From assembly GCA_018238545.1 (NCBI GenBank), contig JABCTC010000008.1, forward strand, positions 1-64,000: DNA of 64,000 bases, read 5' to 3'. The translations under genes were made by a program, and so were the position numbers. Shown in pieces: positions 31,319-51,254 of this stretch (position 1 is the first letter of the stretch; the number at the start of each line of letters is the position of its first letter). This stretch comes from Candidatus Heimdallarchaeota archaeon (lineage in GTDB: Archaea > Asgardarchaeota > Heimdallarchaeia > Heimdallarchaeales > Heimdallarchaeaceae). The notes under the pieces were generated by a model. It was given only the letters and a program-made list of their open reading frames with translations, was not told the origin of the DNA and did not search any database.

Positions 31319-31891
31319 GTGTTTGAAAAAATTCAAGATAAATGGAAGGACGAACGTGGAAGTGAAAAACTAACTCCCATGGATGAGATATTTTACAGTG
31401 CTATGAGAGAACTTCTGAAGAAACATACCACAAAAACAAAAAAGGAAATCAACCCTCTCATTAAGAAGATTCTGGAAACCAGATTGGAAAGAATCAAATA
31501 TATAATCGATGACTTGATGAGAATACGAACTACAAAGTTAATTACAATGGTAATGAATAGAGAAAAAGTAACCGTTAATTTAGCAAGAGAAGAACAAGAT
31601 TTTTATGACAGATTTTCGCAAATCTATGAATTATACAGGAAAGAGGTATTTTCACCAAAAGATGTAGCATATGTTGACATTAACAAATTAATTGGGAAAG
31701 AAATTGAGGAAGAAGGAGAAGAAGAAATAGATTATGTTGCTATTAGATTTATTAAGAAAACCAAAGCTCAAATCCAGGGGTTAGATGGGAAGACCTATGG
31801 ACCGTTTGAACCTGAAGACGTTTGTTTAATACCTAAAGAAAACGCTATTGGTTTAGTTAGAAGAGAAATTGCTGAAAATATAGAAATGTGA
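31319..31891 (+). CDS. GINS subunit (Gins15/51 type)
   Basis: Helical A-domain then GLDGKTYGPFEPEDVCLIPKENA B-domain; follows PCNA. Confidence 0.85.
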   Translation: MFEKIQDKWKDERGSEKLTPMDEIFYSAMRELLKKHTTKTKKEINPLIKKILETRLERIKYIIDDLMRIRTTKLITMVMNREKVTVNLAREEQDFYDRFSQIYELYRKEVFSPKDVAYVDINKLIGKEIEEEGEEEIDYVAIRFIKKTKAQIQGLDGKTYGPFEPEDVCLIPKENAIGLVRREIAENIEM

Positions 31892-31906
31892 AAATGTGAA
31901 GTAATA

Positions 31907-32092
31907 TTAAGAAAGTACTTCTAAAACTTCCCCAAGGATTTTTGCTTTTCCACCTTTTGGTTCAGTTAGATTTGAACCGCAAACATTGCATTTTACTACT
32001 ATTTTTGCTGAATCAAATACAATTTGTTCATTATTGCAACTTTCACACTTAACTTTAAGGAATTTAGTGGTAGGTTGAGGTACTTTAGACAT
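31907..32092 (-). CDS. rps27e: Ribosomal protein eS27
   Basis: FLKVKCESCNNEQIVF..CNVCG..PKGGKA. Confidence 0.95.
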   Translation of the reverse strand: MSKVPQPTTKFLKVKCESCNNEQIVFDSAKIVVKCNVCGSNLTEPKGGKAKILGEVLEVLS

Positions 32093-32169
32093 AGTTGAAG
32101 CAAATAAAGTGAATTTAAATATTTATTGATAAAAGGGTAAAACAAATAATTCGAAAAATAAAAAGAAAA

Positions 32170-32254
32170 TGGTGCGGGGAGGGAGATTCGAACTCCCGAA
32201 CCACTAAGGAACAGATCTTGAGTCTGCCGCCGTTGGCCACTTGGCTATCCCCAC
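32170..32254 (-). tRNA. tRNA-Leu(CAA)
   Basis: Loop CT-CAA-GA, long variable arm, GTTCGAATC, encoded CCA. Confidence 0.93.
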
Positions 32255-32302
32255 AAATAAACTTCTCATTAAAGTGTTATTGGAAAAGTTTTTCACACTT
32301 AT

Positions 32303-33559
32303 TTAATCTTTTCTTTTTTTAGCTATTTGTAGTAGAATTGTTATGGATACTACAAGAAAGGCAATAACTGAGAATCGGTAATCAAATGAAACAATTTCTG
32401 TTTCAGAATCACATTTTACAAGAGTTGATTTCAGATTAGAATTTCCCCAAACATCGAATACAGATAAAGACACATTATATTCGCTGTCTGGATTTACAGT
32501 TAATTTATATTTGAAACTCCAAGAATTTTCTCCTGTAGCCTCGTGACTACCCCACTTTTCTAAAACAGAGTTTACATAGCAATAATAATCGAAATCAGAT
32601 CTATCAGAAACAACAAATATTATTTCAATTACTTCATCACTCTCTGTAAATAATATTATGTCTTGGATGTCAATTGTTGGACCCTCCAGATCTTCTTCCC
32701 ATAGATAATCTTGGTTATTTAATATAAAATCAGTAGCATTCAATGTCACTTCATATGGGAGGTTATTCATTACTTTTGGATGAGGATAGTTTTCAGTTGA
32801 TCCCGCTACAGAACTTGCATAATCTGCAAGTTCGGGGTAAATTTCGAATGTTTCATTATAACATTGCCTAATATCTGGTAGTGAATATTCATACATCTCT
32901 TCTAGACTCACAACGCCATTTCCTGAAGAATCTGCATTAATATCAGCCATTGTTTTAGCCCAAAAGTGGGATGAAATGCCACCAATAAATTCTGGTTCAC
33001 TTAACATCCACGTATCATTATCTTCAGAGGTATATAACAAAGCAAATTCATTTTTAGCTACACTACTCATTGCGAAACTACGATGAAAGAATAATTCAAC
33101 GAATTCACCGCTATAACATGTTTCCATTAAGAAAATTTTATTATCCGTACCAATTCGATTGAATAACAATTGAAACCAACTATTAAAATCTAAAACATCA
33201 CGACAGTAAGTATGACCATGAGCTGAAAGATAAATAAAGACTAAATCGTTTTCATCTACTTTCTCTTCAAGATAATTTAACTGCTCTAGGAAAATGTTTT
33301 TTGTCATATTTTCTTCACCTAGAAATATAGAAATGTTTCCCGCTGACCATCCTAAACTCAATAATGTGTCGTGCATTTCGATAGCTGAACACATGATAGT
33401 ACCATTTATTTCCTGTGGGAATTGATCAAAAAGAACAGCATAAACCTCAACAGGGTTATTAACTTCTTCTCCTGCAACGTCATGATAATTAGGAACAGAA
33501 AGAATAAACGTTAATGTAATAATAGTAAAAATTGCAAAGTGTATGAATTTCTTCCTCAT
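32303..33559 (-). CDS. Secreted, C-terminally anchored clan CD (caspase/legumain-like) cysteine peptidase
   Basis: Signal peptide; FIYLSAHG and FLMETCYSG His/Cys dyad; beta-rich domain; TM + KKRKD tail. Confidence 0.8.
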   Translation of the reverse strand: MRKKFIHFAIFTIITLTFILSVPNYHDVAGEEVNNPVEVYAVLFDQFPQEINGTIMCSAIEMHDTLLSLGWSAGNISIFLGEENMTKNIFLEQLNYLEEKVDENDLVFIYLSAHGHTYCRDVLDFNSWFQLLFNRIGTDNKIFLMETCYSGEFVELFFHRSFAMSSVAKNEFALLYTSEDNDTWMLSEPEFIGGISSHFWAKTMADINADSSGNGVVSLEEMYEYSLPDIRQCYNETFEIYPELADYASSVAGSTENYPHPKVMNNLPYEVTLNATDFILNNQDYLWEEDLEGPTIDIQDIILFTESDEVIEIIFVVSDRSDFDYYCYVNSVLEKWGSHEATGENSWSFKYKLTVNPDSEYNVSLSVFDVWGNSNLKSTLVKCDSETEIVSFDYRFSVIAFLVVSITILLQIAKKRKD

Positions 33560-34967: not shown

Positions 34968-35582
34968 ATGTCAAAAGACGAAACAAATGGAAAGGAGAAA
35001 GGAGACGACGTCAGTAACTCTAAAATGGCGTCAAAAGTTGATATCTCTGAAAGACAAAGGCAAACACTCATTGAAGTAGTGGATGATATAGCTGGGGAAG
35101 AAGTAAAGAAGGTAACTCTAGTCTTATTGAATGCAGATGAAGAAACTACAGATGAAGAGATTTCAGAAAAGCTGGACATGAGACTTAATCAAGTTAGAAA
35201 GTCATTATACAAATTGTATGATTTACAGCTAGCTACTTTTAGAAGAATAAGAGATAAATCAACTGGTTGGTTTGTTTATTTTTGGACTTTACATCCTGAG
35301 AGAATAGATGTCTTTGTAGAAAAAAAACAACTAGACGTTTTACAAAAACTCCATTCTCGCTTGATTTATGAAGAATCTAATATGTTCTTCACTTGTGATA
35401 ATCCCGATTGTCCTCGTGTAACATTCCAAGAAGCTATGGATAATAACTTTGAATGTGAAACATGTAAAGGACGATTGGAGGCCTTTGAGAATGTTCAGCT
35501 AATTAAGGTGTTAAAGGAAAAAATAGTTGAACTCGAAGCAATTAGAGAAAAAACACAAAAGATTATGAAAGGCGAGAAGTAA
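34968..35582 (+). CDS. tfe: Transcription factor E alpha
   Basis: TDEEIS..LNQVRKSLYKL, GWFVYFW, Zn ribbon. Confidence 0.92.
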   Translation: MSKDETNGKEKGDDVSNSKMASKVDISERQRQTLIEVVDDIAGEEVKKVTLVLLNADEETTDEEISEKLDMRLNQVRKSLYKLYDLQLATFRRIRDKSTGWFVYFWTLHPERIDVFVEKKQLDVLQKLHSRLIYEESNMFFTCDNPDCPRVTFQEAMDNNFECETCKGRLEAFENVQLIKVLKEKIVELEAIREKTQKIMKGEK

Positions 35583-36272
35583 AAATCTAATCTCTCCTAA
35601 CCAAGACGTTTTTTGAACAGATTCACTCTCTAATTCCCTTAATGCATCCTTAGCAACCCATTTTCCTGCTGTAGAATCTAACTGAGCTATTATTTTTGCA
35701 ACTTTTATAGCTTCTTTGTTGAGTTTCAGATTTCTTTTTCCAATCTGTCTCAGTGCCCAGTTAACAGCTTTTTTTACCATGGTTCTAGAGTCTGTAGAAC
35801 CCTTTTTAATCAGTGGAAAGAACTGAATAAAAGATTGATCTTCCGCTTTTTTGTCGCTTACAGCTAGCCTTGCTATCATCACATAACCTGCTCTTTTGAT
35901 GAACTCTTCTTCACTAACACTCCATTCAAAGGCTTTAGTGTAAGCAAATTCTGTTTTCTCGAAGAGATTCATTATAATTTGATCACAGATCTCCCAATAA
36001 TCAAAATCTATAACCCATTTTTCTAGTTGTTTTTCAGTTACTTGTTCGGGAACATCAATCATACTTGCTAAAATCATTGTTTCCCTATACCCCGTCTCCC
36101 ATAATTTGTGAGCTAATTCTCTATTTTTCTTTATCCTCTTTGCCATTTTTCTAAGTTCTGGTATCCTTATTCCAAAAGTTTTGTCAGGAGTTATACCAAA
36201 CCTTGCCATCCCCTCAATAGATTCAAGATTAGATTTAGATTTGAATTCTTGCATTATTTCATCAAACTGCAT
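35511..36272 (-). CDS. AlkD-like DNA alkylation repair protein (3' end probably frameshifted)
   Basis: GIRIPELRK, WEICD, VKKAVNWALRQIGKRN; likely start MQFDEIM at 36272. Confidence 0.85.
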   Translation of the reverse strand: MQFDEIMQEFKSKSNLESIEGMARFGITPDKTFGIRIPELRKMAKRIKKNRELAHKLWETGYRETMILASMIDVPEQVTEKQLEKWVIDFDYWEICDQIIMNLFEKTEFAYTKAFEWSVSEEEFIKRAGYVMIARLAVSDKKAEDQSFIQFFPLIKKGSTDSRTMVKKAVNWALRQIGKRNLKLNKEAIKVAKIIAQLDSTAGKWVAKDALRELESESVQKTSWLGEIRFLLLAFHNLLCFFSNCFEFNYFFL

Positions 36273-36413
36273 TGTATTCAAAATGAAAATAGCATTTAAC
36301 TTTAAAAATCTGTATAGTTCACAAACAATTCTTTTGCACAATAATTGTTCTTTCAGTAAAGTTTTATTATTCTAAAATTATTTTTTTATTAACTTGTATT
36401 AGGCGGAATTTTC

Positions 36414-44079: not shown

Positions 44080-44334
44080 ATGAATGACAAATTTGTTGGA
44101 GTGGTAATGATTATCAGCTCTTTAGGTGTGATGGTTTTTATGTTCATATGGACCATTATCCTTCCGATATTAGATGAACAGTTTCTGTTCAAAGCCTATA
44201 TGGCTATTGCGATTGTAATATTTAGTGCAATCTTTGTTTTAACAATGTTAACCGTATGGATTGGTTTAAATTTTCTAAAGAACCGAGCTCCTAAAGAAGA
44301 TCTCTCTGAACAAAAAATTGAAATTAAACAATAA
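44080..44334 (+). CDS. DPM2-like two-TM protein
   Basis: 84 aa; DxxVG..SL..WxIxLPxxDxQ..FLxKAY..AI pattern as recalled for eukaryotic DPM2. Confidence 0.65.
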   Translation: MNDKFVGVVMIISSLGVMVFMFIWTIILPILDEQFLFKAYMAIAIVIFSAIFVLTMLTVWIGLNFLKNRAPKEDLSEQKIEIKQ

Positions 44335-49300: not shown

Positions 49301-49410
49301 AAAATCTTTTGTATTAAGAACGCACGTTATGAAACTTGGTCAAACTTGCCAGAGGCGGTCTAACCGTCGTTTAAGTGGGTCCCCTCACGTGCGATGAGGG
49401 GAAGAGGATC
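49301..49410 (-). ncRNA. Putative TnpB omegaRNA (3' part of scaffold plus flanking guide)
   Basis: CCCCTCA-TCGCACG-TGAGGGG hairpin whose loop is complementary to CGTGCG at the element terminus. Confidence 0.6.
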
Positions 49411-50119
49411 ATAGAGGAGGAAGGAGAGTACCAGGAAGGGAAGCAATGTTTTGGGCAGCATTACTATGTGTGTTAACCTTCTGCCCACACTTCTTACAGG
49501 GAGCAACATCATATTGGTTTCGACCACGAACTAGTGTTCCTCCACAGCCATAGTGCAGAGTGCTGGTGTGATAAGGAAGAACTGATTCTAATTGCACATC
49601 ATAGCCTAGCTCTTGAGAAGCTAACCTTACTGCTTTCTTGTAGATGAACAAACTGTCAGGCATGGTGTAAATAGCTTTTGCTAAAGCTCCTTTAGTACCA
49701 GTAGGGTCAACTGTGAGTTGCTCAACCTTCAATTTTTTACACTGTTTTTTCATCATAACAGCAGCAAGAAAGTGGGGAAGGAGACGAGTAAGTTCGCGAA
49801 GAAGTCTCGACCGTCGAGTATATAGCCTGTTGAGCTCACCTAGTAACTTACAACAACCATGAGCATCACCTGCTTTACGCTTGCTAAGCAACCCACGATG
49901 GAGTTCGGGGAGAACTTTATCACTAAGATGAGTATAGTTTTTAGCCAAGTGCAGCAAATCAGGAGGGAGAGAAAGAGGAATATTAAATGCTACCATGTGT
50001 TTCCCTAAACGGTTGATATCTATACCTAGAATAGCTTGTTTCCTTCCAGCTATCTGGGGGAGATAGGTGTGGAGAAGGGTAGAGGAGTGGAAACGAGCAA
50101 TTTTTCTTCTTTTTCTCAT
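49409..50119 (-). CDS. Truncated TnpB (RuvC + zinc finger only)
   Basis: ILGIDIN, KVEQL, PYHTSTLHYGC..CKKC, NTHSNAAQNIA. Confidence 0.8.
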   Translation of the reverse strand: MRKRRKIARFHSSTLLHTYLPQIAGRKQAILGIDINRLGKHMVAFNIPLSLPPDLLHLAKNYTHLSDKVLPELHRGLLSKRKAGDAHGCCKLLGELNRLYTRRSRLLRELTRLLPHFLAAVMMKKQCKKLKVEQLTVDPTGTKGALAKAIYTMPDSLFIYKKAVRLASQELGYDVQLESVLPYHTSTLHYGCGGTLVRGRNQYDVAPCKKCGQKVNTHSNAAQNIASLPGTLLPPL

Positions 50120-50354: not shown

Positions 50355-51254
50355 CTATTGTTGTTCACTCATGAATTTTTTAAGACGATCTAATTCCTTC
50401 AACATTTCTTTGCGTAGTGCTGCAATCGAAGTGCTCTTTGCGAACAAATCTCCTTCTCCTCCTTCTGGAGTTGAAGATGGTGCAATTGCTGGTGCAGGTG
50501 GTTTAGGTGTTGGCATGCTAGGTGCTGGAATTGAGGGTGTCACTGTTCCAGACTTAGGTGCAGTTGGCATTGGTGGTGATGGAATTGCAGTTGGGGGTGG
50601 AATTTTTCCAATTGATGGTGGCATTGGTGGGCTTGGTGGAGCTGCAGCTGCTGAAGTTGGCATTGGTGGTGTTGGAGGAGCTCCAGCGTCTTTCTTTTTC
50701 TTTTTCTCCTTCTTAACCTTCTTTTCCTTAGCAGGTTTAGTTGGAGGAGCTGGAGGAGCAGTTGTTGGAACAGCGGCAGGAGTTTCTATTTTTTCTTCTC
50801 CCTTAATTTTACTGAGATAGTCTCCTTGCATTTTCTTTAGTTCTTGCTCTAATTGCGATACTTCTGCTTCTCTTGCAGTTTTCTCAATTTCATCTTCAAT
50901 CTTCTTTACATCTGATGTGTATCTTACAGATAATCTTGTGAATATGCTTTCACCAATTTCTTTCTTTTTGTGAGCATCTGACAATGCACGTTGCGCTCCT
51001 AAAAATTTAGCTTTTTCAATTTTTAAAATTGCAATCCTCTCTGCTGGTGGGATATCAGACGGTACAGGTCGATCTGTTTCCAAGTCCATATCTAGCAAAG
51101 TTGGTGAGTCTCTTTTCTTGTAAACTTTTGTTGAAATGGCTACTGCTATAGCAGATAAAATGAAAAATACTATTATCAAATATATAAGCATCTTAAGACC
51201 TGAATCGGTCATGCTAGCTGGGGGTAAATCTCTGAACCAATCTGTAATTGTCAT
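50355..51254 (-). CDS. Single-pass membrane protein with coiled coil, Lys run, Pro-rich region and C-terminal amphipathic helix
   Basis: TM near the N-terminus; KEKKVKKEKKKKK; repeated PPxPPMP; PTAP; SIAALRKEMLKELDRLKK. Confidence 0.75.
   Translation of the reverse strand: MTITDWFRDLPPASMTDSGLKMLIYLIIVFFILSAIAVAISTKVYKKRDSPTLLDMDLETDRPVPSDIPPAERIAILKIEKAKFLGAQRALSDAHKKKEIGESIFTRLSVRYTSDVKKIEDEIEKTAREAEVSQLEQELKKMQGDYLSKIKGEEKIETPAAVPTTAPPAPPTKPAKEKKVKKEKKKKKDAGAPPTPPMPTSAAAAPPSPPMPPSIGKIPPPTAIPSPPMPTAPKSGTVTPSIPAPSMPTPKPPAPAIAPSSTPEGGEGDLFAKSTSIAALRKEMLKELDRLKKFMSEQQ

Follow-up and report, generated by a model that had tools for sequence, protein, structure and literature searches.

Which function is served by a proline-rich membrane protein that is encoded in a Heimdallarchaeaceae genome, and which partner may it recruit? 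The window (the whole stretch of DNA that was analysed, 64,000 nucleotides) contains a 299-residue reading frame in which the first-pass annotation had listed a transmembrane (TM) helix, a coiled coil, a lysine run, a proline-rich stretch with one PTAP motif and a terminal helix, and for which an undescribed membrane adaptor for ESCRT or actin had been proposed. Each of these features is present (Table 1), and the reading frame, which begins with ATG, lies exactly where it was first placed. In its general form this proposal is probably correct, as the protein appears to be a membrane-anchored cytoplasmic adaptor with a docking helix: the TM anchor, the cytoplasmic proline-rich arm and a conserved docking-type helix stand; PTAP, a conserved basic patch and a canonical WH2 motif do not. 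The main finding is the C-terminal helix, whose conservation is far beyond chance.

Table 1. Features of the 299-residue protein and their positions in the window
Feature	Residues	Window positions	Strand	Remark
Whole reading frame	1-299	50355..51254	-	crosses the membrane once; named "hypothetical" in every source
TM helix	22-40	51135..51191	-	basic stop-transfer patch directly behind it; N-out, C-in
Steadiness-box/CdvA-like helical hairpin (putative)	76-115	50910..51029	-	from the alignment with the host Vps23 box
Coiled coil	116-152	50799..50909	-	continues the second hairpin helix
Disordered proline-rich linker	157-264	50463..50786	-	composition kept, sequence and length not
Lysine-rich run	173-188	50691..50738	-	lineage-restricted
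PTAP	230-233	50556..50567	-	chance-level, not conserved
Conserved C-terminal amphipathic helix	271-295	50370..50444	-	pan-Asgard motif, probably portable

Topology, genomic setting and the helical hairpin

An orthologue of the protein is present in 35 of the 40 relatives, and the homologues are named hypothetical proteins of Heimdallarchaeaceae. A Pfam scan of the protein and of its tail gave no meaningful match, and a search of the ESM Atlas retrieved unnamed Asgard clusters only. In the AlphaFold model the TM helix is followed by two helices of high pLDDT (residues 70-96 and 102-152), by disorder (about 154-268) and by a terminal helix (269-298). The TM helix, which has a mean hydropathy of 3.0, is present in 109 of 110 homologues, and the segment after it is richer in lysine and arginine than the segment before it in 109/109, so that, by the positive-inside rule, everything past residue 41 is cytoplasmic.

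The gene was not seen within an ESCRT locus; its neighbour is instead rpiA, and carriers of the TM helix together with the hairpin are often found beside rpiA (in Heimdall, Thor and several other lineages). Between the gene and rpiA a 236-residue TnpB/Cas12f-like fragment is inserted (window 49409-50119, minus strand; PF07282, E 5.9e-5), which is absent from the relatives' loci examined. Elsewhere in the window, an 84-residue protein with two TM helices (44080-44334, plus strand) matches DPM2 (PF07297, E 1.2e-6, above the cut-off) and adjoins genes for A-type ATPase subunits. An antisense reading frame (50371-50820, plus strand) is read as a shadow of the proline codons and was discarded. Two genes downstream of one Loki-type carrier lies an actin-related gene (L074:2983-4107, minus strand); none of the other loci retrieved showed it. 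In L. ossiferum the carrier gene (G136 C1, about 729370-730180, minus strand) adjoins that of adenylosuccinate synthetase.

The helical motif that had been described as being of the CdvA/SHOCT type is real, and its best reading, from sequence comparison, is a putative steadiness-box-like hairpin. It aligns with the steadiness box of the host Vps23 over 40 columns without gaps (hhalign E 6.5e-4). When the homologues are scored with Pfam, CdvA is best (8.4e-5), followed by Vps23_core (0.028) and SHOCT (0.034), all below the Pfam cut-offs, and Pfam CdvA has no match in the 299-residue protein itself. The hairpin profile also finds the cytoplasmic domain of Asgard OST1 (PDB entry 8whn, E 4.4e-4). 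The isolated domain is predicted as a two-helix fold with a pLDDT of 92, and in fold searches the ESCRT-I headpiece chains, CdvA and 8whn lead weakly, with scores that are tied with those of unrelated hairpins (Foldseek E 0.28; VIA Z 9.3-9.7). In the accessible text of PMC10936438, CdvA hairpins and steadiness boxes are described as related and as being fused to many Asgard proteins. The hairpin suggests ESCRT membership, which it does not prove, because Asgard OST1, a protein outside ESCRT, has the hairpin too.

When compared with known steadiness-box proteins (the Vps23/TSG101 core, PF09454; CdvA, PF18822; the Asgard steadiness-box fusions, PMC10936438), the likeness consists of a hairpin in the register of the host Vps23 box that continues into a coiled coil. 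The differences are that the 299-residue protein is without a UEV domain, PRC barrel, Vps28-C domain or winged helix, has a TM anchor of its own, scores below the Pfam cut-offs and lies outside the ESCRT loci, and that its Loki/Odin-type orthologues have a plain coiled coil in place of the hairpin.

The proline-rich arm and the conserved C-terminal helix

The reading frame that bears the linker is the most proline-rich of the host genome; TSG101 likewise has a proline-rich region. The proline runs of the linker are at most three residues long and PTAP occurs once. PTAP as a functional UEV ligand is rejected because it is at chance level and not conserved, though the host encodes a UEV-type partner: shuffling the proline-rich region produces a PTAP or PSAP in 31% of cases, 31 of the 77 more distant homologues have one (25 being expected from shuffles), and only 6 of the 31 rows carry it in register (PTAP in four, PSAP in two). 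The lysine patch fares no better as a conserved element, a run of at least three lysines or arginines being present in only 46 of 88 homologues, and the linker shows no enrichment of MIM2 core motifs (30 observed, 42 expected). The host has a second proline-rich protein of 287 residues at the end of an exosome gene run (G000 C94:28501-29364, minus strand), with an N-terminal coiled coil, a Pro/Glu/Thr linker and a short C-terminal amphipathic helix that is unmatched by the tail profile.

The tail behaves very differently from PTAP and the lysine run with respect to conservation across Asgard homologues. Of 83 family homologues, 82 have the same 22-residue stretch in the tail without a single change, and identity elsewhere in the protein falls to about 50%. 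The computation shows an amphipathic helix of five turns on which purifying selection is very strong. Its hydrophobic positions (277, 280, 284, 285, 288, 291, 294 and 295) are spaced 3-4-4 and make up a wide face, with conserved arginine and glutamate residues on its flanks. At E up to 0.001 the tail profile matches 324 of 399 Asgard genomes, most of which have one copy, and none of 401 Thermoproteota genomes, a sample that doubles as the false-positive control. It has no match in families f22-f25 nor in three further single genomes. Five genomes of family f25 (G291-G295) and G283 (75-83% complete) have no Snf7 match, a divergent actin and no tail motif.

Nearly all of the main carriers are proline-rich ahead of the helix, and their N-termini vary, being a TM helix with hairpin, several TM helices with hairpin, a soluble hairpin, or a plain coiled coil (the Loki, Hel and Odin types). 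Extra copies, often internal, are found in Ras/Roc GTPases and in Sec23/24-like, LRR and small cysteine-rich proteins, and tandem copies occur as doubles and triples (P0110, P0121). Since the helix is combined with varied N-termini, is grafted elsewhere and is repeated in tandem, it probably acts as a portable interaction module. Sequence searches of the PDB with the tail profiles were as unproductive as the Pfam scans, the OAR, GCN4 and PAM hits from these searches being due to chance. Grafted copies in Sec23/24-like, Ras/Roc, LRR and HEAT-like proteins come from Loki/Hel-type genomes (L320:2665-4320, L321:2366-4030, L324, L327, L326, L328, P0110, P0121), and in several of these proteins there is another short helix, which has Glu-Leu-Arg-Glu-Leu-Phe at its core. 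Tandem pairs of multi-TM versions of about 570 residues are found in G064, G070 and G073 of family f5 and at L065:5825-7534; these genomes also have a separate soluble hairpin version.

Candidate partners of the tail helix

The best reading, held tentatively, is that of an ESCRT-linked adaptor whose tail may dock on a Vps4-type MIT domain. The TM helix anchors the protein, with the hairpin and the coiled coil following on the cytoplasmic side, and the disordered proline-rich arm of about 100 residues bears the tail helix, which could dock on a conserved hub at a distance from the membrane. The hairpin may pair with other steadiness-box hairpins, either of ESCRT-I/II-type subunits or of the protein itself, and the tail, in this view a MIM1-like ligand of extended form, may sit in the groove of the MIT domain, such that Vps4 would be recruited or tuned at the membrane independently of the ESCRT-III tails.

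The MIT domain owes its lead solely to the tool results for two distinct regions, the hairpin with its matches to the Vps23 and CdvA boxes and the tail, both of which point to ESCRT. The host encodes actin, Vps4 with an MIT domain, two ESCRT-III proteins and a UEV-Vps23-Vps28 fusion. Its ESCRT locus (G000 C21:31695-37677), which adjoins an E1-like gene, comprises the fusion (487 residues; 31695-33158, with UQ_con, Vps23_core and VPS28), two probable ESCRT-II genes, Vps4 (35122-36294, with the MIT domain within residues 1-90) and the two ESCRT-III genes; the PF05743 search of the host, which had no positive control, was blank, and the UEV-type protein was found by another route. Like MIM1, the tail stands at the C-terminus behind a flexible linker, and in its second half the residues follow the register of Asgard ESCRT-III tails (hydrophobic at 0, acidic at +3, hydrophobic at +4 and +7, basic at +8). 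The suggested MIM1-like character therefore stands in part. With a matrix that was built from 26 Asgard ESCRT-III tails and anchored on the pattern they have in common with the tail, the latter scores 9.6 bits and ranks 37th of 3605 host C-termini (top 1%), as compared with a leave-one-out median of about 22 for true ESCRT-III tails, which in turn score no more than 6.8 bits with the tail profile. The arginine of the eukaryotic MIM1 consensus at +3 is absent, the residue being glutamate in 22 of 23 rows and invariant even in the grafted copies; this is no objection to MIM1-likeness because Asgard ESCRT-III tails carry glutamate or aspartate there.

Binding of MIM1 to MIT has been modelled for Asgard proteins (PMC7240154), and thaumarchaeal CdvA, which joins the same hairpin to an MIT-binding MIM2 (PMC8970359), provides a precedent. 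The likeness to CdvA and to the ESCRT-III MIM1 tails (Vps2/24/46 class, Asgard form) is that of a C-terminal helix after a flexible linker, with the five-position register in common with the latter. The protein differs from ESCRT-III in having no Snf7 core, and its tail in having leucine at +1 (22 of 23 rows) where 20 of 26 ESCRT-III tails have glutamate, in its extra conserved N-terminal half and in being basic, portable and far more conserved. The MIT domain is also far less conserved (45% column identity, and 65-96% in the family) than the tail, and tail and MIT are both net basic (+2.1 and +6.3, respectively), which argues against this pairing.

It is somewhat unlikely that the tail is instead a short helix for self- or hetero-bundling (self-oligomerisation being the alternative that the first-pass annotation had itself named), like the tetramerisation helix of VASP, or docks on another conserved Asgard hub, such that it would cluster the adaptor and the GTPases, Sec23/24-like and LRR proteins with the motif would join the cluster. 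The wide hydrophobic face with its 3-4-4 spacing and Arg/Glu flanks and the internal and tandem copies are in agreement with bundling, as is the fact that the motif of neither named partner, MIT or actin, is fully matched. However, Pfam VASP_tetra (PF08776) misses the tail in 16 genomes (E up to 1), both carrier architectures already have an N-terminal coiled coil, and some 20 residues are short for an autonomous bundle.

Also unlikely is a membrane-tethered actin regulator, an anchor or elongation factor of the Ena/VASP or WASP kind, in which the tail would bind the hydrophobic cleft of Asgard actin in the manner of a WH2 helix, the WASP C region, the VASP FAB or arcadin-2, and the proline-rich arm would load profilin-actin. 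A variable targeting N-terminus, a proline-rich arm and a helix are the layout of eukaryotic actin factors. The conservation of actin tracks that of the tail better than the conservation of MIT does (84% column identity; 93-99% in the family), a basic tail suits acidic actin (-11), and the triple and double tail copies also favour this reading. The tail is found neither in the 401 Thermoproteota nor in families f22-f25, whose actins have diverged further; of these families, f24 has retained ESCRT-III. The host encodes two close actins (host actin at G000 C21:52126-53262) as well as gelsolins. Heimdall and Thor profilins show weak binding to polyproline (PMC8410842), and the C-terminal helix of arcadin-2, an archaeal precedent, binds the actin groove (PMC5173319).

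Several observations are not in agreement with actin binding. The canonical WH2-like tail that had been suggested is not borne out, as Pfam WH2 (PF02205) matches neither the 23 tails nor the locus (E up to 10) and the helix is predicted to run unbroken through Leu-Lys-Lys, with no glycine linker. The tail is without a match in the PDB, the proline runs are short, and the PF00235 search of the host, which was without a positive control, gave no profilin match. Three genomes that are 93-96% complete and have a conserved actin lack a tail match. The tail is not fused to gelsolin or profilin domains; the fusion search gave Ras/Roc, LRR and Sec23 partners and none from actin or ESCRT families. For Lokiactin, the proteins mentioned in the accessible co-immunoprecipitation text of PMC13716822 are limited to gelsolins, profilin, an ARF GTPase and BAR proteins. 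The likeness to Ena/VASP, WASP/WAVE and arcadin-2 consists of a targeting module, a proline-rich arm and a basic amphipathic C-terminal helix; unlike Ena/VASP and WASP/WAVE, the protein has no EVH1/WH1 match, no Pfam WH2 or VASP_tetra match, no acidic tryptophan tail and only short proline runs, and it has an integral membrane anchor. A CCDC53/WASH match on an Odin protein (E 0.012) was lost when a 48-sequence alignment of the N-terminal helix was used, and WAVE/WASH homology was rejected as unsupported.

An extracellular Pro/Thr stalk, or a low-complexity membrane protein of the ordinary sort that plays no part in signalling, is highly improbable: the Pro/Thr/Ala-rich linker of variable length and the uninformative automatic names would fit, but the positive-inside rule places the C-terminal part in the cytoplasm in 109/109 homologues, soluble orthologue-like carriers without a TM helix exist, and the tail is near-invariant.

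Significance for Asgard biology

Asgard archaea crawl using actin, and they encode ESCRT. The protein that carries the Asgard-wide tail motif appears to belong to a known kind, the steadiness-box adaptor. Neither the family nor the motif is described in the literature searched, although the family may have been listed earlier among the steadiness-box architectures of PMC10936438, outside its accessible text. Survery et al. go no further than to remark that proteins with polyproline are widespread among the genomes of Asgard archaea (PMC8410842). In the accessible text of recent work no formin- or Ena/VASP-type filament polymerase is named in Asgard archaea (PMC13716822), and in that of PMC10936438 no ESCRT-0 orthologue is named.

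If it were true, as seems doubtful, that the protein is a near-universal, Asgard-specific, membrane-tethered actin assembly factor with an ESCRT-I-like hairpin, a polyproline arm and an actin-binding helix, it would be an archaeal functional forerunner of the Ena/VASP- or WASP-type factors and a direct link between ESCRT and actin, and its portable motif would recruit GTPases and coat-like proteins. More generally, because of its membrane anchor, its portable docking helix of 20 residues and its Asgard-wide spread, this mostly single-copy gene, present in about 80% of the Asgard genomes and in none of the 401 Thermoproteota sampled, is a candidate for a missing membrane link, which may be of the filament polymerase or of the ESCRT-0 type.
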